Positions 1-11,816 of a stretch of DNA of 13,889 nt are shown in pieces (the stretch's first letter is position 1; the number at the start of each line of letters is the position of its first letter). The position numbers and the translations under genes are program-made. The stretch covers positions 8,046-21,934 of the forward strand of contig CAYJVT010000011.1 in the NCBI GenBank assembly GCA_964373695.1, read 5' to 3'. The notes under the pieces were generated by a model that saw nothing but the letters and a program-made list of their open reading frames with translations, searched no databases and was not told where the DNA came from. This DNA is from an uncultured archaeon (lineage in GTDB: Archaea; Aenigmatarchaeota; Aenigmatarchaeia; GW2011-AR5).

Positions 1-196
1 CGCCGTCAAAGCTTTCATCTTCCAGTACGGCCGGGAGAACAAGGTATAAGGTCTGGTCCTGGCGGCCGTGATGTTGGCTTTCATTGAGTATGGCGACAAA
101 CACTTCATAATGAAATCCAGGACTCAGAGCTCTCTGGAGCGGTGACTTCACATCGTCGTCATCTGCCTTGGCGATTTCCTTGATGCCGAGGAGCAT
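1..196 (-). CDS. Possible 5' part of a hypothetical gene running off the left edge (MLLGIKEIAKADDDDVKSPLQRALSPGF...)
   Basis: Open frame from ATG at 196 to the window edge with GC-rich third positions. No RBS is visible, no family is recognised, and it abuts the first CRISPR repeat. Confidence 0.3.
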   Translation of the reverse strand, partial: MLLGIKEIAKADDDDVKSPLQRALSPGFHYEVFVAILNESQHHGRQDQTLYLVLPAVLEDESFDG

Positions 197-200
197 GGCT

Positions 201-378
201 CTTGCACGACATCCCACACCAATCTGGGATATGGAACTGGTGGATGGCGAGAGAGCCATCGGGAAGGACAGACCTTGCACGGACATCCCACACCAATCTG
301 AGATATGGAACTCAAGGGGGGAATAGAATATATGGAACCATCTTGCCAAGGGGAGATACTTGCACGACATTCCACACC
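201..378 (+). CRISPR. Degenerate CRISPR mini-array 1: full repeat 201-237, repeat with a 1-nt insertion 274-311, 3' repeat remnant ATATGGAAC 330-338, 5' half repeat 359-378
   Basis: CTTGCACGACATCCCACACCAATCTGGGATATGGAAC at 201-237 is identical to the repeat at 4166-4202. The 36-bp spacer spans 238-273. The second interval (312-358, 47 bp) contains a repeat 3' remnant. Confidence 0.9.
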
Positions 379-381
379 TAA

Positions 382-429
382 TGGCCTCTTCCAAGGCCAC
401 GAGCCGAGGCCAAGGCACTCGGCGAATCC
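382..429 (+). ncRNA. tracrRNA-like two-hairpin element, copy A1 (class alpha)
   Basis: GGCC-TCTTCCAA-GGCC, then GCCGAG-N9-CTCGGC, then GAATCC. Near-identical to 3758-3806. Loop TTCCA is complementary to TGGAA at the repeat 3' end. Confidence 0.7.
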
Positions 430-454
430 TATTACGTCTGCCAATATCCTTTCA

Positions 455-510
455 TGGCGTCTTCCAGCGCCAAGAGTTGAGTCTTCGGAACTCAACAAAT
501 CCCACACCAA
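455..510 (+). ncRNA. tracrRNA-like two-hairpin element, copy A2 (class beta)
   Basis: GGCG-TCTTCCAG-CGCC, then GTTGAG-N9-CTCAAC, then AAATCCCACACCAA. The final ATCCCACACCAA equals repeat nt 11-22. Stem sequences differ from A1 but pairing is preserved. Confidence 0.7.
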
Positions 511-525
511 GTAGTTTGAACAAAG

Positions 526-570
526 AGGCTGTTTCATTCAGCCTGATGGCGTCTCTTCGGTGACGCCGAC
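526..570 (+). other. Two-hairpin element B with similar architecture but a different loop
   Basis: AGGCTG-TTTCATT-CAGCCT (526-544) followed by GGCGTC-N8-GACGCC (548-567), in the 5' region of effector 1. Confidence 0.4.
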
Positions 571-604
571 GAAATAAATGAACGACCAACCACGGAGGAA
601 ATCC

Positions 605-2209
605 ATGAAGCCCGATTATCCGATCCTCAGCATCAAGATTCTTGTCAGCAGGATGGGAAGCGATTCAGACGACTTCTCCTTCCCCGGAAGAAAATCCCTT
701 TCCTTCATTCCGCGAGAAAGATTCGTCTCTTGTCTTTCCCGCATGCAGGAAGAAGTGTCAAGGCACTACAACCGCTGCATGAGGGAGATGTTCATTACAT
801 TCGCCAGTTCCAACAGGCTCCGGCAGTCAGACGTAACCCGGTGCACGAAGCCCGTGACGCCGGTTCTGGGGGCGTACATACGCAATGGCCTCGCCTCGAA
901 ACTGGCTGCAACTTTCCGCAGGCGGGAGATGGCCTTCGCTTCGGCTAGGCTGCCTTCGGCTAACAGCAGCCTTCCCGTCCCGTTCTCCGCGGGATTCTCC
1001 CTAGGCATGACTGACAGGGAAGAGTTTGCAGTCTGTCTGCCACTTCCCTCATCCTTCCTAGGCATGGAAGGGAAGAATATCCAGGTTCCCCTCATCGTCT
1101 CTACGAAGTCCCGCGAGAAGCGAGTCATGAGACAAAGGAGGAAAATGGGCAGCGACTGGCACGGGAAGTCCACGGACGAAGTGGTGATGGGGCTGAAGAG
1201 CGGAAGATACATGTCTTCCTACTGCGAGGTGTTCTGCCGCGACGGCAGGATATGGATAAGCCTCTCCGTGAAGTTGCGGAAGGCCCCATGCCCAGAATGC
1301 AGCAGCGATATGTGGACCGAGACGAAAACGACCAGATGCCTCTCCTGCCACTCGACTGGGAAGGTTGTTAAGGAAGACGAGAAGGGTAGGAAGAGGACGA
1401 TCTGCGAGGGCTGCGGCGAAAGCCATTTCGAGCCTCTCTATCGTTGCGGCAGTTGCGGCTTCAAGATTTACAAGGGCGGCCTTGACGAACTGAGCATTGT
1501 AGGTGATGGTCTCGATCCGGCCGTGACGGGCGGTATCAACTTCGGCGTCGGGAAGTTCGCCTGCTGCGCGACCAACTCGGGAGATGAACACTTCATCATC
1601 GGCGGGTCGGAGATTGTCAACCTCAACACGGAGTTTGCCGGCCGCCGCTGGGAGATGAGCAGGCAGAGCCGTGTCAACAGGGGGGGACGGGGCATTAAAT
1701 ACAAGTTCAGGCCCTACGAATCCATGTCCCGGCGCATGGACGAGAAGCGCAGGACCGTCATAAGGCAGATGGCTGCCGAGATAGTCCTCTTCTTCAGCGA
1801 GCAGCGGGCTTCCACCGTCTTCATGAACAGCATGAGAGGCGTCAAGGACTCCCCTGTTCCCTGGAATTTCTTCCAGATGTTCCAGATAAGGAACGTTCCT
1901 TATGGGGAGTTTATCGCTGCCATCAAGCACGCCCTCGCCAAGGAAGGCATCGCCAGCCTGTTCATTGACGAGAAGCAGTCGGAGGGCGAGAAGGTTGATT
2001 TCTTCGACTTCACTTCCCAGCTCTGCCACAGATGCGGCCATTGGAACAGGCACTTCACCTTCCAGTGGCGCCAGGAGAACGGCTTCCCGCCGTTCAGATG
2101 CAGCAGTTGCGGCAGAGAGTTCGACCCTGATTTCAATGCGGCCAAGCGCGCCTCCATGGGAGCAGATCACATCGCAGCTGTGGAGGGAATCGTGGCTCGC
2201 GACGAGTAA
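605..2209 (+). CDS. Cas12f/Cas14-like (TnpB-family) RNA-guided effector 1, predicted nuclease-dead, 534 aa
   Basis: GGAGG RBS at 594-598 before ATG 605. C-terminal RuvC-like layout: GGINFGVGKFACC (RuvC-I, Asn at the Asp position), STVFMNSM (RuvC-II, Asn at the Glu position), TSQLCHRCGH...CSSCG zinc finger, and DPDFNAA (RuvC-III). Extra 4xCxxC insertion before RuvC-I. Flanked by CRISPR arrays. Confidence 0.85.
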   Translation: MKPDYPILSIKILVSRMGSDSDDFSFPGRKSLSFIPRERFVSCLSRMQEEVSRHYNRCMREMFITFASSNRLRQSDVTRCTKPVTPVLGAYIRNGLASKLAATFRRREMAFASARLPSANSSLPVPFSAGFSLGMTDREEFAVCLPLPSSFLGMEGKNIQVPLIVSTKSREKRVMRQRRKMGSDWHGKSTDEVVMGLKSGRYMSSYCEVFCRDGRIWISLSVKLRKAPCPECSSDMWTETKTTRCLSCHSTGKVVKEDEKGRKRTICEGCGESHFEPLYRCGSCGFKIYKGGLDELSIVGDGLDPAVTGGINFGVGKFACCATNSGDEHFIIGGSEIVNLNTEFAGRRWEMSRQSRVNRGGRGIKYKFRPYESMSRRMDEKRRTVIRQMAAEIVLFFSEQRASTVFMNSMRGVKDSPVPWNFFQMFQIRNVPYGEFIAAIKHALAKEGIASLFIDEKQSEGEKVDFFDFTSQLCHRCGHWNRHFTFQWRQENGFPPFRCSSCGREFDPDFNAAKRASMGADHIAAVEGIVARDE

Positions 2210-2281
2210 ACTGCCACTTCCGCAGGCAAAAGCTGTGCTTTCGGGCATGGCAATTCTATGCGGAACAAACAAGGAGATCCT

Positions 2282-3652
2282 ATGCAAATTCTTCCGAGAT
2301 ACTTCAGGTTCCGTGTCACGGGCCCCGAAGGAATTTTCAGGGCCCTGTCGAAACTCAAGTCCGTGACCGTCAACGCCTTCAACACAGGCGTTGTCAGGCG
2401 TTATCATGGCGAGACACCCTTCCTTCCGGAAGAGCTGTTCGGCAATCCCATGCTGCTCTCGGGCATGAAATCCCAGCTCGCGGAGATGTACGACGATGAT
2501 GCCATCCAGAACGACCGCATCTCGCTTCCGACCCAGGCCTACGACAGGATGAGAGTGAGGTTCGAGTCCAAGCACGGCCTCATGCTAGAAAGGCGAGGCG
2601 ACAGGTACGCGCTCCTGCTCGTCTTCCCTGCCTTTTCGATCATGGAAGGCGACAAGGGAAAACTGGCCGAATTCTCCGGAGAATCTGCCGAACTCTCTGT
2701 AGAGATAAGCGGTTCTGTGAAAAGGCGAGACGGAAAATTCCAACCTGCTTCTCATCTCACAGAAGTCGCCTCGCGCATCATGGATGGCACCTACATCAGC
2801 TGCCGGTGCGAATTCTTCCACCATAGGTATCAGGGGTGGGTACTGAATCTGGTAACGTACAATCAGGGCATCGACTGCCTGGAGTGCGGAGCGGACTCTT
2901 GGGAAGAGGCTGGCGAAGTTGTCGTGTGCATGTCATGCGGCCATTCTTACAGTCAGGAAGTATTCTCCCGGATGATGGCGGAGAACCTGAAGCCTCTGCC
3001 CGATGTCAGCTGCGGCATCATGATAGGGCTTTCGACTCCTCTCATCTTCTCTTCCACCGGCCACGAGAGGCGCAGTGTATTCCCAGGAGAGGCTGAGCAC
3101 ATGAGCGGCGTCATCAGGGCCCGCGTCATGTTGCGCCACAAGGGTAACTGGAGCAGCTGGGAAGAAAGGTGGGAAAAAGCGGAAGCTGGTTACAGAGAAC
3201 GCGCCAGGAGAATCGCGGACGGCTGGCGGCGGGTAGTGTATGAACAGGGCGTGCGCAAGACGCGCGCCTCCTGCATCTGGATGCTGAGACATCCGGGAGA
3301 GTGGAATTACTTCACTTACAACCGGCTGCACTTCTTCGAGCCGTCCGATGTCATGGGAGAGGTAAGCAGTTGGCTGTCTTCCCCTCAACGGAAGCACGTG
3401 ATGGAAGTGAGGTTCATGGACGAGGAGTTTACGGAAAGGCATGAAAAACCTTTCGACCCCAGCATGCTGTTCCGTCTCTGCCACTCCTGCGGCAGGCTGT
3501 ATCCCTCTCTTCCCCATCCGCTGCCCAGAGACAAGCGCGGCCGGTTCCCTCTATTCGAATGCGTCTGCGGAACCAAGACGACGCTCGACGCCAATGCCGC
3601 CAAGAACCTTGCCGGCGGCGAGGAGACGATGGGAAAGATCGCTTCGCTGTAG
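2282..3652 (+). CDS. Cas12f/Cas14-like (TnpB-family) RNA-guided effector 2, predicted nuclease-dead, 456 aa
   Basis: AGGAG RBS at 2272-2276 before ATG 2282. N-terminal RYFRFRV strand, CGIMIGLSTPLIFS (RuvC-I, Met at the Asp position), SCIWMLRH (RuvC-II region without Glu), CHSCG...CVCG zinc finger, and LDANAAKNLA (RuvC-III, canonical DxNAAxNI/L). Extra CLECG...CMSCG ribbon. Confidence 0.85.
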   Translation: MQILPRYFRFRVTGPEGIFRALSKLKSVTVNAFNTGVVRRYHGETPFLPEELFGNPMLLSGMKSQLAEMYDDDAIQNDRISLPTQAYDRMRVRFESKHGLMLERRGDRYALLLVFPAFSIMEGDKGKLAEFSGESAELSVEISGSVKRRDGKFQPASHLTEVASRIMDGTYISCRCEFFHHRYQGWVLNLVTYNQGIDCLECGADSWEEAGEVVVCMSCGHSYSQEVFSRMMAENLKPLPDVSCGIMIGLSTPLIFSSTGHERRSVFPGEAEHMSGVIRARVMLRHKGNWSSWEERWEKAEAGYRERARRIADGWRRVVYEQGVRKTRASCIWMLRHPGEWNYFTYNRLHFFEPSDVMGEVSSWLSSPQRKHVMEVRFMDEEFTERHEKPFDPSMLFRLCHSCGRLYPSLPHPLPRDKRGRFPLFECVCGTKTTLDANAAKNLAGGEETMGKIASL

Positions 3653-3660
3653 AAAAACGG

Positions 3661-3691
3661 AAGGGCGGGCTTGAAAGGGGGCCCGCCCTTT
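3661..3691 (+). terminator. Strong GC hairpin 8 nt after the effector 2 stop: terminator, processing signal or 5' stem of the downstream RNA
   Basis: AAGGGCGGGC (3661-3670) pairs perfectly with GCCCGCCCTT (3681-3690). The U tail is only short, so termination may be leaky. Confidence 0.5.
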
Positions 3692-3693
3692 CA

Positions 3694-3742
3694 TGGCCTC
3701 TTCCAGGGCCATAAGTCGAGCTTACGAGACTCGACAAATCCC
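3694..3742 (+). ncRNA. tracrRNA-like two-hairpin element, copy A3 (class beta)
   Basis: GGCC-TCTTCCAG-GGCC, then GTCGAG-N9-CTCGAC, then AAATCCC. Preceded by CCTTTCA, exactly as A2 is. Confidence 0.72.
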
Positions 3743-3757
3743 TGCTTAATTGTACTC

Positions 3758-3806
3758 TGGCCTCTTCCAGGGCCACGAGCCGAGGCCAAGGCACTCGGCA
3801 AATCTC
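3758..3806 (+). ncRNA. tracrRNA-like two-hairpin element, copy A4 (class alpha)
   Basis: GGCC-TCTTCCAG-GGCC, then GCCGAG-N9-CTCGGC, then AAATCTC. The tail ATCTC is complementary to the GAGAT repeat variant of the adjacent array. Confidence 0.72.
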
Positions 3807-3871
3807 TGACCTACTGACAATGTTCTGCAGGAAATCGAGTGAAATGGTCGAAAATCGTCGAATCCACGGCT
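3807..3871 (+). promoter_or_regulatory. Putative leader of CRISPR array 2
   Basis: Non-coding stretch before the first repeat. It ends CACGGCT, and array 1 is preceded by CATGGCT. Confidence 0.45.
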
Positions 3872-4202
3872 CTTGCACGACATCTCACACCAATCTGAGA
3901 TATGGAACCCGAGCATAAGGAGCCTCAAAGCGCACACCAAGACGCACTTGCACGACATCTCACACCAATCTGAGATATGGAACCGTCGTTCCCACTATCA
4001 GTCCCCACGCACTCAAGCACTTGCACGACATCTCACACCAATCTGAGATATGGAACCGAATCCACGTGCAGACTTGCCATGACCCTCACTAACTTGCACG
4101 ACATCTCACACCAATCTGAGATATGGAACAGACATATTCAATTCGTCTGCTCGACGACCCCGCTACTTGCACGACATCCCACACCAATCTGGGATATGGA
4201 AC
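3872..4202 (+). CRISPR. CRISPR array 2: 5 repeats of 37 bp and 4 spacers (38, 36, 36, 36 bp)
   Basis: Repeats at 3872, 3947, 4020 and 4093 are CTTGCACGACATCTCACACCAATCTGAGATATGGAAC. The repeat at 4166 is the ATCCC/GGGAT variant. All spacers are unique. Orientation is inferred from the GGAAC 3' end, typical of type V-F repeats. Confidence 0.97.
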
Positions 4203-4315
4203 AAGCTTGGCCTCTTAGAGGCTCGTAATTCTCTAAAGGCTGAACTCCGGTAACCGAGAAGCAATCAAGAACGCCTTCCCATGGCGTTCTCCCCTTCCTG
4301 CATAAGGAGAAGAAC

Positions 4316-4474
4316 ATGCGGAAAGCCGTTCCATTCATCATTGCAGTTCTCGTCCCCGTCGGCTGCATCATCGCGATGCAGAACGGCATCCACATCAACG
4401 GCCAGGACGGCCTCTTCTGCTTGTCAGCGTTCCTCCTATGGAAGCTTGTCAGCATGAAAAAGGTAAGAGAATGA
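4316..4474 (+). CDS. Small hypothetical membrane protein, 52 aa (MRKAVPFIIAVLVPVGCIIAM...)
   Basis: AAGGAG RBS at 4304-4309, two hydrophobic segments, and an ATGA stop/start overlap with the next gene. Confidence 0.65.
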   Translation: MRKAVPFIIAVLVPVGCIIAMQNGIHINGQDGLFCLSAFLLWKLVSMKKVRE

Positions 4475-5007
4475 GCATGCAGAACCCATTCAGCACGCCC
4501 GAGCTGGTTCAGGCAGCGAGGAAGGAGGCCGATACGCTGGTGGACGAGTTCCTGCAGAACCCGGAAGACCCGGAGGTCGTGAACGACATCCTGCACTGTG
4601 GGGACGCCGAGATGTATTCGAAGTCCCTGTCGCTGCAGATGCTTGCCATGGGTGGAGGGTGTACAGAACATGAGGAGTTAAGTGCGGCCGAGCTGGAGAT
4701 TGCAGCAACCCGTCTGCAGGCGATGCTTCATACAGGAACGTTTCTGATGGAGCGGCTCGGGAGAGAGAAATTTCCCGAGGCGGCAAATATGAAGGACATC
4801 GTCAGAGCGTCCCATTTCATTGTTTGGAAGGCCCGTGACGATGTCGTTGAGATGCTCCATATGTCGGAGCAAGAGCCGGAGGAAGAAGTCGTCGGGACGG
4901 AAACGAACGAGGATGGGCCATCGGAGACATCGCTGACACCTCGGGCTGTTCTACTGTTTCTCATCCTGTTCGCCTGCATCGTCATCCTCATCAGGACATG
5001 CGGCTAG
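4471..5007 (+). CDS. Hypothetical helical protein with an acidic linker and C-terminal membrane anchor, 178 aa
   Basis: ATGA overlap start at 4471. C-terminal AVLLFLILFACIVILI transmembrane segment. Confidence 0.75.
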   Translation: MSMQNPFSTPELVQAARKEADTLVDEFLQNPEDPEVVNDILHCGDAEMYSKSLSLQMLAMGGGCTEHEELSAAELEIAATRLQAMLHTGTFLMERLGREKFPEAANMKDIVRASHFIVWKARDDVVEMLHMSEQEPEEEVVGTETNEDGPSETSLTPRAVLLFLILFACIVILIRTCG

Positions 5008-5076
5008 GGAAAGGAGTCACGAACACGGATTCATATCTCCCCATTTTCCAACCTTCTCCCCAGAAGAGAGCGGGAA

Positions 5077-5277
5077 ATGAAACGCAAGTATAACTGCCCT
5101 GCATGTGGCGGCTTCCTCTCTTTGGATAAACAGGAGAAGAATGAAGAGGAACTTCAGGTTGACGCCACGTGCCGTGCCTGCGGATTCAGGGGAATGGCAA
5201 TCCTCGCGATAAACAACGGCATCGTGAGATGGCCGGAGCGTATAAGATTCGAGAAGCTTGATGTACTCGTCGTGTAG
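5077..5277 (+). CDS. Small zinc-ribbon protein, 66 aa
   Basis: CPACG...CRACG pair. Confidence 0.72.
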   Translation: MKRKYNCPACGGFLSLDKQEKNEEELQVDATCRACGFRGMAILAINNGIVRWPERIRFEKLDVLVV

Positions 5278-5325
5278 CCAAGCGGAATTCACACTCACTC
5301 GCACAGTTGAATAGGGAGAAACATC

Positions 5326-5595
5326 ATGGGGAAGGATGGCCTTACAGCCGGTGGAGTGCAGGTGTCGCTCAGGGCCGTGGTGGAGCGGCTTGACGATTTC
5401 ATCGAGGAAGAAATCGAGCCGTCAAGGAGGGATGACGGCAAGGCAGAGGCCGCCTACAACCTCAGGAGAGGATTTGCCGCCAGATTACCCGGAGGCGGCG
5501 GCGACGTGACGGAAGCGTGGCCGCTCAAAAGGGCGGAGAGCTTCTGCAGGAGCTACGGCGGCACGGTGGAGGGGCTCCGGGGAGCTGAAGCATGA
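5326..5595 (+). CDS. Hypothetical protein, 89 aa
   Basis: GGGAG RBS upstream and an ATGA overlap with the next ORF. Confidence 0.65.
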   Translation: MGKDGLTAGGVQVSLRAVVERLDDFIEEEIEPSRRDDGKAEAAYNLRRGFAARLPGGGGDVTEAWPLKRAESFCRSYGGTVEGLRGAEA

Positions 5596-5702
5596 AGGCC
5601 GGGAAGCCGAAGGACCGGAAGGAAGAGAAGGGCAACGGCCGCGACCGCGCGTGCATCAGGCGCTCCAGCAGGCACGTGGCCCGCAACGGCAGACGCCACT
5701 GA
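5592..5702 (+). CDS. Small basic hypothetical protein, 36 aa (MKAGKPKDRKEEKGNGRDRACIRRSSRHVARNGRRH)
   Basis: Fills the gap exactly: ATGA overlap at 5592-5595, and its stop is followed by the GGAGG RBS of the next gene. Confidence 0.45.
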   Translation: MKAGKPKDRKEEKGNGRDRACIRRSSRHVARNGRRH

Positions 5703-5713
5703 GGAGGAAGCTC

Positions 5714-5965
5714 ATGAACGCATCATTCGCTTCGCTCGTTACCCTCGACGCTCTCTTCGTCATGTTCTGCGGCCAGCAGCTCGTCAAGCCGGAAGTAAAC
5801 ATGAAGGTGAGGGACGACGACGGCGAGCGGCTTGTGAAGGCGCAGCTTCGGGTCATCGTGCCCTGCGAGATGAAGATGCCCGCGGACAAGTGGATTCTCG
5901 TGATGGAAGTTGTTGAGGACCCGGCCGGCAAACTCGTCGGCATAATGCTGAAAGGGAGGACGTGA
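5714..5965 (+). CDS. Hypothetical protein, 83 aa
   Basis: GAGGAGG RBS at 5701-5707 favours ATG 5714 over the upstream GTG. GC3-rich codons. Confidence 0.7.
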   Translation: MNASFASLVTLDALFVMFCGQQLVKPEVNMKVRDDDGERLVKAQLRVIVPCEMKMPADKWILVMEVVEDPAGKLVGIMLKGRT

Positions 5966-6067
5966 GAGGAAGGAGAGCGCATCAACACGAGAGGAAAGTA
6001 GTTTGTTCATGAAGCACTGCCAGAGCAAGAAACCTGTAAGGAGGAAGAAGTCAGGAGACGTAGCAAT

Positions 6068-6322
6068 ATGGAAAGCATAGAGAGCTGGTGGCGGGTTTTC
6101 AGATACTTGCAGCAACGGCGACCCGGCAGGCCGGATATCGGATGCCCGACAAACAGGCTGATGACGTGTCTGATAACGGGCCGCGTCGGGAAAAAAGCCA
6201 AGGACAGGCTGAAGGCACATATCTTGGTGTGCGAGTCATGCCTGTTCTTGGTGGTGAAGGTCGCCATTTCACGATCCCAATGGGACAAAACTTCCGAAGA
6301 AGAGAAAGCACATGTCAGATGA
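6068..6322 (+). CDS. Stand-alone zf-HC2/ZAS (zinc-binding anti-sigma) domain protein, 84 aa
   Basis: C-x24-H-x3-C-x2-C motif (GCPTNRLMTCLITGRVGKKAKDRLKAHILVCESC). AGGAG upstream. No transmembrane or sensor domain. Confidence 0.65.
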   Translation: MESIESWWRVFRYLQQRRPGRPDIGCPTNRLMTCLITGRVGKKAKDRLKAHILVCESCLFLVVKVAISRSQWDKTSEEEKAHVR

Positions 6323-7022
6323 GAAGGACAGGAGCTTCGCGAGAGGCATCGCGCACCACTTCAACAATGCCCTTCATGGCATCTTGGGGAATCTTCAGCT
6401 TGTCATGAAGCACGAGCTTCCCGAAGAGGCCGCGGAGTCAGTCAGGGTCGCTGATAAATCGGCCACGAGACTTGCCGCTCTTGTCAGGCAGATGCTCGAC
6501 TTCATGAAAGCCGGGGACATCGCGCCGAGAGAGTTCCCCATATCGGGTGTCGGCAGGCTCATGGAAGACGAGTTCAAGAGCTTGGCCGGCCGTATCCAAC
6601 TCATCATCGACCTCCCGGCCGTCGTATTCACAGGAGACGCCGACAAGATCGTACTCATGCTGCGCCTGCTTGTCCAGCGCTCGGTGGAATCGCTGGAAGG
6701 CAGGGAAAACGGTCGGATAGTAGTGAGCGCGTTTCCAACAAGAAAGGAAGTGTCCGGGAAACGCAGGGATTTCCTCGTCTTCAGCGTCACGGACAACGGC
6801 CCGGCCATTCACGAGAACATGCTGGGTCACGTCTTCGAGCCGTTCTTCAACCCGACGGAACCGAACATACCAGGCGACCTGAAACTCGCCACTGTCAGCG
6901 CGATAGCGGCAGCGCACGGAGGATGGGCCGAATGCAATTCGGGCAATGCGGGGGCCATGTTCTCGGTGTACCTGCCGGCGGCAAAGCAAGAACCGGCTAC
7001 ATCGGAGAATCACATCGGCTGA
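6312..7022 (+). CDS. Sensor-less histidine-kinase-like protein (HisKA + HATPase_c), catalytically degenerate, 236 aa
   Basis: H-box GIAHHFNNAL, D-box DNGPAI, F-box FEPFF and terminal AHGG are recognisable. N-box asparagines and the G2 box GxGLG are missing (LMLRLLVQRS; PGDLKLA). Confidence 0.85.
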   Translation: MSDEKDRSFARGIAHHFNNALHGILGNLQLVMKHELPEEAAESVRVADKSATRLAALVRQMLDFMKAGDIAPREFPISGVGRLMEDEFKSLAGRIQLIIDLPAVVFTGDADKIVLMLRLLVQRSVESLEGRENGRIVVSAFPTRKEVSGKRRDFLVFSVTDNGPAIHENMLGHVFEPFFNPTEPNIPGDLKLATVSAIAAAHGGWAECNSGNAGAMFSVYLPAAKQEPATSENHIG

Positions 7023-7096
7023 AAGGACACCGGCACTAAGAACGAAAAACGAAGTGATTGCAGTAAACGCAGTTCACATTGACGGAGGGAATTGAA

Positions 7097-7675
7097 GTGA
7101 AAGCAGCAAGAACAATATTCTGCATCGTCATCGCCGCCCTGCTCTGCGCTGTTTGGGTTTCGCATCTCCACAAGAACTGGATGGTTGGCCTTGTCGGCGG
7201 CGCTGGAGCCGGCTTCCTGGTGGACTTTTTCGCTTTTGTATTGCCGGAATCCAGGAACGACAGGAAGAGGTTCCGCAAGGTCTTCGGCTTCTATCCCAAT
7301 CCTGGCGGTGATGCAGTTACGAGAGAAGCCGAGCTCAGGATCATCGGGCACAAAAGGGCAGTTCTCATCGAAGAGCTGGCCCGTGTGATGAGGATAATCG
7401 AACAGCTCGAGGCGAACTTCCGGATAACAAATTCGAATCGCGGGGAAATAATCGGAAGCCACACAAGGAAGTTGACGACTCAGCGAGAAGCGGCTTTTGC
7501 TATCCACCGGCAAATGGAGGAGATCGAGTGCCTGGCAATCAGGTTCGGGTACTGGGCCGCCCCTGAACCGAAGGTAGATGCGGTTGAGGCGCCGGCTCTG
7601 GTCACAGGCTCTAACGGCGACATCCCGAAGCCTGAGCCCGCCACAACTGTTTCACAACAGCCTCGGGTAGCCTGA
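7097..7675 (+). CDS. Hypothetical membrane protein with two N-terminal hydrophobic segments and a coiled-coil-like cytoplasmic part
   Basis: GGAGGG RBS at 7084-7089 favours GTG 7097. IFCIVIAALLCAVWV and LVGGAGAGFLVDFFAFVL hydrophobic stretches. Confidence 0.72.
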   Translation: MKAARTIFCIVIAALLCAVWVSHLHKNWMVGLVGGAGAGFLVDFFAFVLPESRNDRKRFRKVFGFYPNPGGDAVTREAELRIIGHKRAVLIEELARVMRIIEQLEANFRITNSNRGEIIGSHTRKLTTQREAAFAIHRQMEEIECLAIRFGYWAAPEPKVDAVEAPALVTGSNGDIPKPEPATTVSQQPRVA

Positions 7676-7702
7676 AGCTGCCGTCACGAAAGGAGCATTC
7701 CC

Positions 7703-7819
7703 ATGCTACTGTTCGCCGTCTTCGTCGTTGCTGTCGCAGTGCTCGCCCTCCTGTTCATATGGTGGGAAGAGCACAAGAGGAAGAGAAACAGGCAGCGCCC
7801 GTCGAGGATGTACGAGTAG
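7703..7819 (+). CDS. Small single-pass membrane protein, 38 aa (MLLFAVFVVAVAVLALLFIWWEEHKRKRNRQRPSRMYE)
   Basis: AAGGAG RBS at 7690-7695. Transmembrane helix followed by a basic tail (positive-inside pattern). Confidence 0.65.
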   Translation: MLLFAVFVVAVAVLALLFIWWEEHKRKRNRQRPSRMYE

Positions 7820-7997
7820 AGAAGGCCGCGGATGAAGAGGGGGCCCCGGTAATCCTTTGTTGAGAGGCGAAGGATGTGGGACATGTGGGCGTCCGCCGGG
7901 GCCCTCCAAAACCGAAACCGGTAGTAGTGAACCGAAGAAAGGAGGCAGCTCTTGCCTACATAAGAAGAGAAGTTAACCCGAACGAGGAGAACACACC

Positions 7998-8957
7998 GTG
8001 TTCTACATCCTGAGCATGTTCATAGCAGCTGCGTTCTTCTTCTTCATGAGGTGGTATGGGAAATTCATCGCCGAGAAGGGCACTTCTTCGCTGCCGCGGC
8101 TCTTGGGCAGGAAAATCAGGAAGGCCGCCGCCGCCATCTTGGTGGTGTGGGCCGGACTTCACACCATTCTCGGCTCGGTGAACCAGATTCCGGCAGGCAA
8201 TGTCGGCGTGGTCTACGAATTCGGCGCTATCGTCGACCAGGTTGGTGAAGGCCTGCAGTTCGTGGCGCCATGGAAGTCGGTGACAGTGGCCAGCATTCAG
8301 GTACAGGGTCACAAGTTCAATGACGCGAACAAAAACACTCTCACCGCTTTCAGTGAGGAGACACAGGAGGTCCTCATCTGGGCGACGCTCAACATCCGGG
8401 TGTCGCCAAGGGCAATCCAGGATCTGTACCGCACCGTCGGCCCGAACTACTTCGACATCGTGGTTGCTCCCCGCGTCGCCCAGAGCTTCAAGGATGAGAC
8501 GGTGAAGTACAAGAGCGTTGACATTGCTCCGAACCGCGAGGGCATCCGCCAGAAGGTGCGTGAAAAGCTCGAGAGCGAGCTGAGCTCCGTGTATTCCATC
8601 GAGGTTGTCGACATGCTCCTCGACAATATCGACTTCCAACCCGGCTTCAAGGCGGCCATTGAGGCCAAGCAGATTGCCACCCAGCAGGCCCTGGAGGAGG
8701 AGCAGAAAGTTGTCAAGGCGCGGCACATGGCGGAGCAGGCCGTCGAAAAGGCCATTGGTGAAGGCAATGCCATCCTGGCAGTGGCTGAGAAACAGGCCGA
8801 AGCCAACCTGAAGCTCAGCCAATCCCTGACGCCGGCCCTGATCCAGTACACCATGGTTCAGAGGCTCAGCGACAAGATTGGGGTGATGATACTGCCGCCG
8901 GGTCAGAACTTCATCCTGGGCGCTGATGTCCTGAGGGGAGCTTCGATGGTGCCCTGA
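7998..8957 (+). CDS. SPFH (band 7/prohibitin) family membrane protein, 319 aa
   Basis: GAGGAG RBS, N-terminal TMs, IPAGNVGVVYEFG...GEGLQFVAPW, and the C-terminal AAIEAKQIATQQA...EAEQ-type coiled coil typical of prohibitin-like SPFH proteins. Confidence 0.92.
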   Translation: MFYILSMFIAAAFFFFMRWYGKFIAEKGTSSLPRLLGRKIRKAAAAILVVWAGLHTILGSVNQIPAGNVGVVYEFGAIVDQVGEGLQFVAPWKSVTVASIQVQGHKFNDANKNTLTAFSEETQEVLIWATLNIRVSPRAIQDLYRTVGPNYFDIVVAPRVAQSFKDETVKYKSVDIAPNREGIRQKVREKLESELSSVYSIEVVDMLLDNIDFQPGFKAAIEAKQIATQQALEEEQKVVKARHMAEQAVEKAIGEGNAILAVAEKQAEANLKLSQSLTPALIQYTMVQRLSDKIGVMILPPGQNFILGADVLRGASMVP

Positions 8958-10061: not shown

Positions 10062-11816
10062 GTGAAAAAGATGGCCAACATTGTCCTGTCAATACTCGCG
10101 GTCACAGGACTTGACGCGATGAGGACAGACGCTTCAGCCCAGACACAATCTGGGATGACTATCACGACAAATTTTCCTGACACGCTCACGACAGGTATAG
10201 AGTTTTTGAGTGTGTATATTCAATCTGGCACAAGCGTATCATGCAGATACTCTTATACCACGGATTCGTACAACTCCATGGACCCCAGGACGACTCTGAA
10301 ATACGGTCCATACATCTGGCTTGTTTCAGGATTCGCCTCCGGCGAGAACACTATCAATGTCGCCTGCATGGACAACAGAGGCAATGAGGGGAAGCTGACA
10401 ATAAGGTTCTTTGTTGGACCGCTACTGTCAACGAATTTCCCCAAAATTATCACGACAACCAAGGCTTTGTTGCACGTGAATGCCACTTCCGGCTTCTCAT
10501 GCAGATACTCCACTGAAACGGACTCCTACGACTCCATGGAGGGTGTAACGTTAACAAACTCTCCATACGTATGGCTCATCACAGGCCTGACGAACGGCGA
10601 GAAGACGGTTTACGTCGCCTGCACGGATGGCAGGGGCAATGAACACAAGCTGACGGTGAGGTTTGTCGTGGACATACCTGGACAGGGAAGTCCAGTCTCT
10701 GGCGCCGGGGGCGGCAGGCAAGTACCTCCTTCGGAGCGCGGAATCATTGTCGCCAAGTTCGATACTGTGTCCCTCAACGGCTCTGTAACTACGGACGAGA
10801 TAAGCTACAAGGTCTTGGTGCCGAGAACTTCGGTTCCACTGAACCAGACATTCCCGATCAGAATCCAGATTCTCGGGGCCGACCGTTTGTTCGAAAGAGG
10901 CAGTCCCAGGAGGATGCTGATTCCCGGCGGGTTGGCCGTGTATGTATACGACGACGCGGGATACATGGCAGCCCCATCAACCATGCGGGTTTACAACTCA
11001 TATACAAAGTCTTACGAAGACATCAGGCCTCCCGAGCCTTTGGAAGAGGCTATTCTGGGGTTCGTGCGTGGAGGGCTGGGACTTTTTCTGGGCGTAGCAT
11101 CGACATTGGTAAACGTGCACGGGTTCGGAATAGCCGCGAATCTCGCGTACCATGCAGGCCAGGCTGCAGGCACGGCTCTTCTTGGAGAGAGCCCAAGGAG
11201 CACAGTTGAAAAGCAGAACCGCCTTCTGGAGATAGAAAGATATCTCGACAAATATGAGATACCGGTCTATTCAACACGGGTTGTGGATACAGGGGGATTT
11301 GAGTTCGAGGTCCCCCTTTCCTTCAGCAGGAGACAGACGTCCGTCTATATAGCAATAGGCCAGGTGATGACATCACGCAAATGGTATGATTCCCGTCTCG
11401 GGCTGGAAACCAAATCATATCCACCCAGGCTTATCATACTGCCCCTGGACAATTTGCGTGACCTGAGTTCCCCGCCGCCTGCAGGTCGTATGGCTGCGAT
11501 AGATGCATCTCCTGACAATGCAGCTTTTTCAGACAACCCGGCGTCTAGTGGCCTGTCCAATTCCCCGAACCCCTTCAACTCCTCGACGCAGATCACCTTC
11601 AAACTGGACGAGGAGCAGGATGTGACACTCGAGATACGTTCCATGACCGGCCAGCTTGTCAGGACGCTCGTCGATTCGAGGATGGAAGCCGGCATCCACG
11701 CCATTCATTGGGACGGAAAAAACGGCGCTGGCGACAACGTGGCATCAGGTATCTATCTGTGCCGGCTGAAGGCTGACAATCGGACAACAATGAGTAAGAT
11801 GACACTGATCCAGTAA
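10062..11816 (+). CDS. Secreted/surface protein with two tandem Ig-like repeats and a C-terminal FlgD_ig/T9SS type A sorting-like domain, 584 aa
   Basis: Signal peptide MKKMANIVLSILAVTGL...ASAQ. C-terminus NSPNPFNSSTQITFKL...G.LVRTLVD....AGIHAIHWDGKN..G..VASGIYLCRL is characteristic of FCB-superphylum secreted proteins. Confidence 0.88.
   Translation: MKKMANIVLSILAVTGLDAMRTDASAQTQSGMTITTNFPDTLTTGIEFLSVYIQSGTSVSCRYSYTTDSYNSMDPRTTLKYGPYIWLVSGFASGENTINVACMDNRGNEGKLTIRFFVGPLLSTNFPKIITTTKALLHVNATSGFSCRYSTETDSYDSMEGVTLTNSPYVWLITGLTNGEKTVYVACTDGRGNEHKLTVRFVVDIPGQGSPVSGAGGGRQVPPSERGIIVAKFDTVSLNGSVTTDEISYKVLVPRTSVPLNQTFPIRIQILGADRLFERGSPRRMLIPGGLAVYVYDDAGYMAAPSTMRVYNSYTKSYEDIRPPEPLEEAILGFVRGGLGLFLGVASTLVNVHGFGIAANLAYHAGQAAGTALLGESPRSTVEKQNRLLEIERYLDKYEIPVYSTRVVDTGGFEFEVPLSFSRRQTSVYIAIGQVMTSRKWYDSRLGLETKSYPPRLIILPLDNLRDLSSPPPAGRMAAIDASPDNAAFSDNPASSGLSNSPNPFNSSTQITFKLDEEQDVTLEIRSMTGQLVRTLVDSRMEAGIHAIHWDGKNGAGDNVASGIYLCRLKADNRTTMSKMTLIQ
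10164..10673 (+). repeat. Tandem intragenic domain duplication of ~83 aa (10164-10418 and 10428-10673)
   Basis: Both copies read TNFP...SCRYS..TDSY.SM......PY.WL..G...GE.T..VAC.D.RGNE.KLT.RF.V. Confidence 0.85.

Follow-up and report, generated by a model that had tools for sequence, protein, structure and literature searches.

Among the described systems, the closest to the locus reported here is Un1Cas12f1 (Cas14a.1, type V-F1; PDB 7c7l and 7l48), an active nuclease that is assembled from two identical subunits, uses a ~140-nt trans-activating CRISPR RNA (tracrRNA) and adjoins cas1-cas2-cas4. The roles of its two protomers and the patch through which they dimerize have been described (PMC8053092). 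The reported Cas12f structures that we found are all dimers of two identical subunits with different jobs, and we found no published report of a heterodimeric Cas12f. Naturally nuclease-dead homologs are known from the dCas12f-sigmaE systems of Bacteroidota (Hoffmann et al., Nature 2026, PMC13472631), which form an asymmetric homodimer on one guide (structure preprint 10.1101/2025.06.10.658880). These one-gene proteins, in which a C-terminal truncation has taken away part of RuvC, are linked in an operon to rpoE (a sigmaE with an extended C-terminal domain) and a helix-turn-helix gene, work with a single chimeric guide and no array, and activate transcription. The same study describes a CRISPR-array-associated dCas12f cluster (Extended Data Fig. 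1, PMC13472631) whose guides match host genes and whose members are proposed to be repressors; it is bacterial, known from bioinformatics only, and consists of one effector gene with guides to efflux-pump promoters. TldR (TnpB-like nuclease-dead repressors) and the binding-only Cas12m and Cas12k are likewise RuvC-dead, DNA-binding members of the TnpB/Cas12 superfamily, but they belong to other branches and act as single proteins with omegaRNA or other guide architectures. Here we describe two neighboring Cas12f1-type genes, which we call casA and casB, in a 13,889-nt stretch of DNA (hereafter the window; GenBank assembly GCA_964373695.1, contig CAYJVT010000011.1, positions 8,046 to 21,934) from an uncultured archaeon of the Aenigmatarchaeota. 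All locus coordinates are positions in the window, on the forward strand unless stated otherwise.

The casA-casB locus resembles Un1Cas12f1 in several respects. Un1Cas12f1 is the best sequence match of both proteins, Cas12f is their best fold, and all fall in the same clade and have the same domain order; the one known target here has a T-rich 5' flank, and the array lies on the same strand with repeats ending in ...GGAAC. Unlike Un1Cas12f1, the locus holds two diverged genes, neither of which has the RuvC-I Asp or RuvC-II Glu and each of which has a zinc-ribbon insertion ahead of RuvC-I. The zinc-finger portion at the N-terminus of REC is absent, the only RNA modules found in place of the long tracrRNA are 47 nt long, and there are no adaptation genes in the locus. 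With the dCas12f-sigmaE systems it shares naturally nuclease-dead Cas12f homologs whose guide-dependent DNA binding would affect host genes; it differs in its two paralogs, in retaining the TNB finger and RuvC-III, in having arrays and in having no sigma factor nearby. Relative to those systems, casA and casB represent an independent, archaeal inactivation within the Cas12f1 clade. The array-associated cluster, which we compare by its description only, also combines a dead Cas12f with adjacent arrays and guides to host genes, whereas the present locus has two effector genes and a match inside a coding region. A dead, array-linked, self-targeting Cas12f is of a known kind (Hoffmann et al., PMC13472631); what sets the present locus apart are the two diverged paralogs in one operon, the zinc-ribbon insertions, the full-length C-termini and the archaeal host.

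CasA and CasB are true paralogs within the Cas12f1/Cas14a clade. They are 23% identical over 462 columns in BLASTP (E 5e-10), and alignments and AlphaFold2 models give both the same succession of domains: a WED strand, a short helical REC, a WED sheet, a CxxC..CxxC insertion, RuvC-I, RuvC-II, the TNB zinc finger and RuvC-III. In phmmer, casA matches Un1Cas12f1 (7l48/7c7l) with an E value of 4e-29; casB alone reaches 0.03, and a profile built from casB and its only detected relative, P0004, reaches 2e-10 (7c7l). The best full-length Foldseek matches of the two models are Cas12f structures (7c7l, E 1.7e-18, for casA; 8j3r, E 2.5e-14, for casB), the models having been built from shallow alignments of 16 rows with predicted local distance difference test scores of 66 and 74, respectively. 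In a tree with TnpB-like proteins from the same phylum as outgroups, casA, casB with P0004, and two canonical Cas12f1 proteins form one clade with support of 100/100, and both casA and casB sit on long branches.

Two insertions that canonical Cas12f1 proteins lack are common to casA, casB and P0004. The first is the zinc-ribbon insertion, double in casA and single in casB (Table 1), which carries the motif C-x-x-C-x-x-D-x-W-x-E in all three proteins, and the second is a ~12-residue acidic insert before the TNB finger. Because these insertions are shared, a common duplicated ancestor of casA and casB appears favored, though not proven. The best tree also places casA as sister to casB and P0004 (support 76/85); the alternative, in which casA stands beside canonical Cas12f1, is not rejected (p = 0.16 in the approximately unbiased test).

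Both proteins have lost the same two catalytic positions. In casA, Asn312 (1538-1540) occupies the position of Un1Cas12f1 D326 and Asn408 (1826-1828) that of E422, and the RuvC-III residue is kept as Asp509 (2129-2131, at D510). CasB has Met247 (3020-3022) and, at the RuvC-II position, Leu335 (3284-3286), with the RuvC-III Asp436 retained (3587-3589); P0004 reads L-(L)-D and is dead at the same two positions as casB. The intact triad, D-E-D, is found in 65 of the 66 viral relatives aligned alongside these three proteins. The TNB finger is present in casA (2024-2113) and casB (3479-3571). Across all 16 aligned relatives there is no variation at its cysteines, at the Arg that corresponds to R490 or at the RuvC-III Asp. 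Judged from these residues, casA and casB are nuclease-dead yet otherwise intact proteins.

The losses are unequal. At the 213 columns that are identical in two canonical Cas12f1 proteins, casA keeps 81 residues and casB 54, and columns kept by the B lineage (casB and P0004) but lost by casA number only 10. The columns kept by casA include the TSQ.C..CGH motif and a segment, RGGRG..KFRP.E, that resembles a lid; the B lineage has lost both. Both substituted catalytic codons of casA read AAC, the minimal type of change (Asp to Asn). Taken together, the minimal substitutions and the larger number of canonical columns and nuclease-linked motifs suggest that casA lost its activity later than the B lineage did. 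The B lineage further lacks ~20 residues after the 'YN' motif of REC, a stretch that in Un1Cas12f1 holds four of the five residues of the homodimer patch (I118, Y121, Y122 and I126; PMC8053092). As a consequence, the known REC-REC dimer contact is missing on one side, and a canonical contact of this kind between casB and casA does not appear to be obviously available. Mapping the residues by which Un1Cas12f1 reads the protospacer adjacent motif (PAM; S142, R163, Q197 and Y202) and its cap residues (F341 and R343) onto casA and casB gave no clean complementary pattern, with N-terminal alignments that disagree between methods.

The two genes are arranged as a compact unit. Their open reading frames (ORFs) run from 578 or 605 to 2209 and from 2258 or 2282 to 3652, with public gene calls starting at 605 and 2282, and both frames are fully open (534 and 456 codons). 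The 72-nt gap between them (2210-2281) contains no terminator-like signal and folds no better than shuffled sequence (z -1.3), whereas a strong GC-rich hairpin directly follows the casB stop and is likely to mark the end of the transcript; on these grounds casA and casB probably form a single transcription unit. Their composition is similar, with a GC content of 0.57 in both and third-position GC (GC3) values of 0.75 for casA and 0.71 for casB, against a genome GC of 0.486. The initial annotation of this DNA had described two intact, co-oriented paralogs 72 bp apart, each with its own ribosome-binding site, of common domain order and little sequence identity, and every part of that description is borne out.

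The locus is flanked on both sides by arrays and structured RNA modules, in the order array-modules-casA and casB-modules-array. One 37-nt repeat family, which within the 1.02-Mb assembly is confined to this locus, occurs at 201, 275 (degenerate), 3872, 3947, 4020, 4093 and 4166. Its repeats are identical across the flanks, and two isoforms, GAGAU and GGGAU, both occur on each flank. The four 47-nt modules fold as two hairpins and covary in hairpin 2; they fall into three variants that are not split by flank, with one alpha copy on each side and two different beta variants. Since module variants and repeat isoforms are found on both flanks, the CRISPR RNAs (crRNAs) and module RNAs constitute one pool and not a set for each gene. 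The earlier claim that both genes use one repeat family holds as far as the family itself is concerned, and its use by the proteins is what we infer. The alternative raised in the initial annotation, two independent effectors each with its own tracr class, fares differently in its two halves: independence is slightly favored, as discussed below, but the assignment of a tracr class to each protein has no counterpart in the distribution of the modules.

The layout of the modules hints at a possible tracr role. Pairing with the repeat, over 5 nt in each case, could involve the module loop UUCCA and the tail AAAUC(U/C)C, and the arrangement of a hairpin with a potentially repeat-pairing loop, a second hairpin and a potentially pairing tail is similar to that of stems 3 and 4 in the Un1Cas12f1 tracrRNA (PMC8053092). 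The gain in nested cofolding of module and repeat is no better than with shuffled repeats, and the modules have no Rfam match. Two further elements lie close by, namely an extra hairpin (GGCGTC..GACGCC, within 500-604), similar to module hairpin 1 and located between module beta-1 and casA, and a 10-nt tandem, AAATCGTCGA, at 3842-3862, just 5' of array 2.

The first spacer of array 2 matches the host genome at all of its 38 positions (contig C3, 33740-33777, minus strand). The protospacer falls within a 69-codon ORF that encodes a C2H2 zinc-finger protein, 65-102 nt into the frame; this ORF is divergent from the adjacent gene for the replication factor C large subunit. On the protospacer strand the 5' flank is TCGTTT, which provides GTTT or TTTC according to the end point of the repeat. 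A guide made from this spacer would pair with the template strand of the zinc-finger gene. Because 32 of 41 related genomes and 28 of 31 genera have this gene (96% identity within the same genus), the target is a core host gene and not a mobile element. Neither spacers 2-4 of array 2 nor the array-1 spacer has a self-match, nor do they have an exact 24-nt match in viral contigs. Dead effectors combined with a perfect match to a host gene point to RNA-guided binding and transcriptional blocking, and the locus probably acts by silencing of this kind. Alternatively, the self-matching spacer might merely be tolerated, since nothing can cut.

Table 1. Positions of the genes, signals and RNA elements of the casA-casB locus within the window.
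Feature	Position	Strand	Basis or remarks
CRISPR array 1, degenerate	201-378	+	full repeat 201-237; 7-mismatch repeat 275-311; last 9 nt 330-338; half repeat 359-378
47-nt two-hairpin module, alpha copy 1	382-428	+	direct-repeat family D2; -23.6 kcal/mol, z -3.7
47-nt two-hairpin module, beta variant 1	455-501	+	compensatory changes in hairpin 2
GGAGG Shine-Dalgarno-like motif	594-598	+	6 nt ahead of casA ATG 605
casA, 534 aa, predicted nuclease-dead Cas12f1-type protein	605-2209	+	phmmer, Pfam PF07282, codons, fold
Double zinc-ribbon insertion of casA, last WED strand to RuvC-I	1289-1471	+	absent from canonical Cas12f1
AGGAG Shine-Dalgarno-like motif	2272-2276	+	5 nt ahead of casB ATG 2282
casB, 456 aa, predicted nuclease-dead, strongly diverged Cas12f1-clade protein	2282-3652	+	sequence, profile, fold, codons
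Single zinc ribbon inserted in casB, at the site of the casA insertion	2876-2944	+	alignments
GC-rich hairpin then TTT, directly 3' of casB stop	3663-3691	+	-28 kcal/mol, z -4.0
47-nt two-hairpin module, beta variant 2	3694-3740	+	alignment, folding
47-nt two-hairpin module, alpha copy 2	3758-3804	+	96% identical to alpha copy 1
CRISPR array 2	3872-4202	+	five repeats of 37 nt; four spacers, 36-38 nt long
Spacer 1 of array 2	3909-3946	+	38/38 match to host C2H2 zinc-finger gene, contig C3

The known relatives of the two proteins occur singly in the cases available. In a search scope of ~15 billion proteins, the B family comprises only casB and P0004: a sensitive HMMER search of 1.84 billion cluster representatives, made with casB as its only query, returned P0004 alone (sample SRR22388346; 468 aa, 40% identity, E 1e-101), and a profile search of a 5.8-billion-cluster index added no further casB relative. 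P0004 is encoded at 1432-2838 of an 8.1-kb contig, among whose gene calls there is no second Cas12f-like gene (n=1; gene list only). The other calls are small ORFs, ordinary metabolic genes (ketol-acid reductoisomerase and NAD-binding oxidoreductase domains) and a PIN-domain gene. On this contig, 955 bp without genes lie upstream of P0004 and five consecutive small ORF calls downstream, regions that may correspond to non-coding RNA and array sequence. The nearest relatives of casA are lone, ordinary active Cas12f1 genes beside cas1-cas2-cas4, or beside cas4 on a shorter locus. Neither gene occurs in 60 close relatives of the host genome. Profile scans of 371 genomes from the phylum turned up no further pair, whether tandem or dead, and those of viral contigs gave 64 loci, which have intact D-E-D triads, with no tandem pair among them. 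Word-index searches gave no match for casA and only casB itself for casB, and no relatives came out of pattern scans in which casA, casB and the alignment of casB with P0004 were run against collections of genomes, metagenomes and viral contigs. A tblastn search of phage and plasmid records with casA gave only TnpB-level matches (24-28% identity), and ESM Atlas look-ups only generic TnpB/TNB clusters.

Two observations on these collections deserve mention. Clustering of proteins at 90% files the 534-aa casA product (P0008, P0009 and P0010) under an unrelated 56-aa DUF5052 phage-like protein, a database artifact that hides casA from cluster-based look-ups. In addition, one of the 64 viral loci, and only one (L081, an IMG/VR contig), carries two Cas12f/TnpB-like genes, at 857-2062 and 4302-5729; one reads D-E-D and the other D-G-D, and they are 2.2 kb apart and not in tandem.

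Following these comparisons, we propose that casA and casB diverged long ago within a lineage that derives from Cas12f1 (Cas14a) and would no longer be able to cut DNA. They would be transcribed together between two small arrays and four structured RNA modules, in a GC-rich island of a DPANN-like archaeon with a genome of ~1 Mb, and the locus would most likely bind DNA under RNA guidance but not cleave it, as in CRISPR interference. The spacer 1 guide would pair with the template strand of the zinc-finger gene beside a T-rich, PAM-like flank and thereby block its transcription. As to stoichiometry, which like DNA binding and repression we infer, our preferred interpretation, at a probability of roughly 0.45, is that casA and casB load guides as separate complexes from one crRNA pool, over an obligate A-B dimer. 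CasA would be the conservative, Un1-like protein and is probably still a homodimer, and casB would be a reduced form whose sole known relative stands alone. That P0004 is by itself on its contig suggests that a B-type gene can stand without an A-type partner, the nearest relatives of casA are single-gene, the B lineage lacks the REC segment of the known dimer patch, and the back-to-back order of arrays, modules and genes looks like two units placed end to end; these features support separate complexes. Several considerations weigh against this interpretation. Two effectors of 23% identity would both need to accept the same repeat and modules, and the near-identical RNA parts on both flanks (alpha copies 96% identical, repeats identical) would fit one shared RNA better; the strongest case for a shared complex comes from this homogeneity of the RNA set beside such divergent proteins. 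Two dead proteins binding with the same guides would moreover be redundant, yet both are intact, with the same GC and similar GC3. Finally, the argument from the solitary homolog is based on one contig, and the P0004 genome could carry a partner gene outside it.

The strongest competitor of separate loading is an obligate or preferential A-B heterodimer that arose by duplication of a homodimeric Cas12f1, with each paralog keeping one protomer role. CasA would then be protomer 1, which reads the PAM and senses the R-loop, and casB the scaffold-bound protomer 2, the mixed dimer sitting on one guide. The tight operon lacking a terminator-like signal in its gap and the single homogeneous family of repeats and modules serving both genes are in line with this proposal. 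The two shared insertions and the best tree fit the duplication that it requires, the long branches of both proteins would be expected after a partition of roles, and the intactness of both genes despite their apparent redundancy would be explained. The asymmetric losses point the same way, in that the lid and catalytic pocket lost by the B lineage are not used by protomer 2 of Un1Cas12f1 (PMC8053092). Against it, the only B relative has no A-type neighbor, the B lineage lacks the REC segment of the known dimer contact, and the 10 columns retained by it and lost by casA are too few to make the losses clearly complementary. There is no other tandem pair in the 371 phylum genomes or the 64 viral loci, a sister relationship of casA to canonical Cas12f1 is not rejected, and the layout resembles two units. 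The obligate heterodimer by protomer specialization, which the initial annotation had put forward, is not supported by these data: P0004 is solitary on its 8.1-kb contig, so that in the one B-type case available from a gene list the two genes do not co-occur, and the relatives of casA are single-gene. We therefore consider an A-B dimer somewhat less likely than separate complexes. In its fullest form, in which casA and casB make up a natural heterodimeric class 2 effector, now nuclease-dead, that acts as an RNA-guided repressor of a conserved host zinc-finger gene in a DPANN-like archaeon, we give the idea the same weight.

A third explanation, which we consider improbable and weaker than the heterodimer, is that only one of the two proteins is a working guide-bound effector. 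The other would be a recently disabled nuclease in decay, or a guide-free accessory or regulatory protein; in the relic variant, the nuclease would have been silenced because the array holds a self-targeting spacer. An active nuclease sharing an array with a perfect self-match would indeed be lethal, the upstream array has decayed, and the minimal substitutions and nuclease-linked motifs of casA fit a more recent inactivation than that of the B lineage. Decay is at odds with two open frames that have all zinc-binding cysteines, good Shine-Dalgarno motifs and matching composition, and with the occurrence of the locus, identical in sequence, in two other public samples. Two other candidates were rejected: a sigmaE-type activator, since Pfam and NCBIfam scans of the neighboring ORFs revealed no sigma gene nearby, and TldR, since CRISPR arrays are present and the proteins fall within the Cas12f1 clade.

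The host genome is an archaeal assembly of 1.02 Mb that is ~91% complete, with an archaeal small-subunit (SSU) rRNA. The archaeal SSU rRNA model matches three separate pieces over 5 kb (contig C12, 16799-22150), as if the 16S gene had large insertions or introns. The copy of the locus in Logan is 100% identical to the window. Within the window, the cas locus and a unidirectional series of small genes on the casB side (1-8500) have a GC content of 54-58%, compared to 48.6% for the genome. This stretch fits a horizontally acquired island, and no integrase or capsid gene was seen in it. Among the small co-oriented genes is a 236-aa histidine kinase core (6312-7022; HisKA and HATPase_c) with no sensor domain, and a 584-aa protein encoded at 10062-11816 ends in a domain that matches the sorting tail of bacterial type IX secretion (Por_Secre_tail / FlgD_ig).

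No cas1-cas2-cas4 was found in the window when the neighboring ORFs were scanned with Pfam and NCBIfam; such a set is present on another host contig, C13. There (1-3200), behind cas1-cas2-cas4, lies an AT-rich ORF (33% GC) that is cut off by the end of the contig and spans at least 415 aa; its N-terminus resembles that of a TnpB/Cas12 protein, and it has no Pfam or PDB match. This ORF may represent a second, possibly active, type V effector with an unassembled array, and the C13 locus could supply spacer acquisition in trans.

Were the two proteins to form a heterodimer, they would show how the asymmetry of Cas12f dimers evolves and would allow the half that reads DNA and the half that binds the scaffold to be engineered separately in the smallest CRISPR effectors. 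Even if the two act on their own, as we prefer, the locus represents an archaeal loss of cutting in which arrays and a perfect guide to a conserved host gene are retained. A natural CRISPR-interference circuit in DPANN-like archaea would be directly testable at the casA-casB locus.

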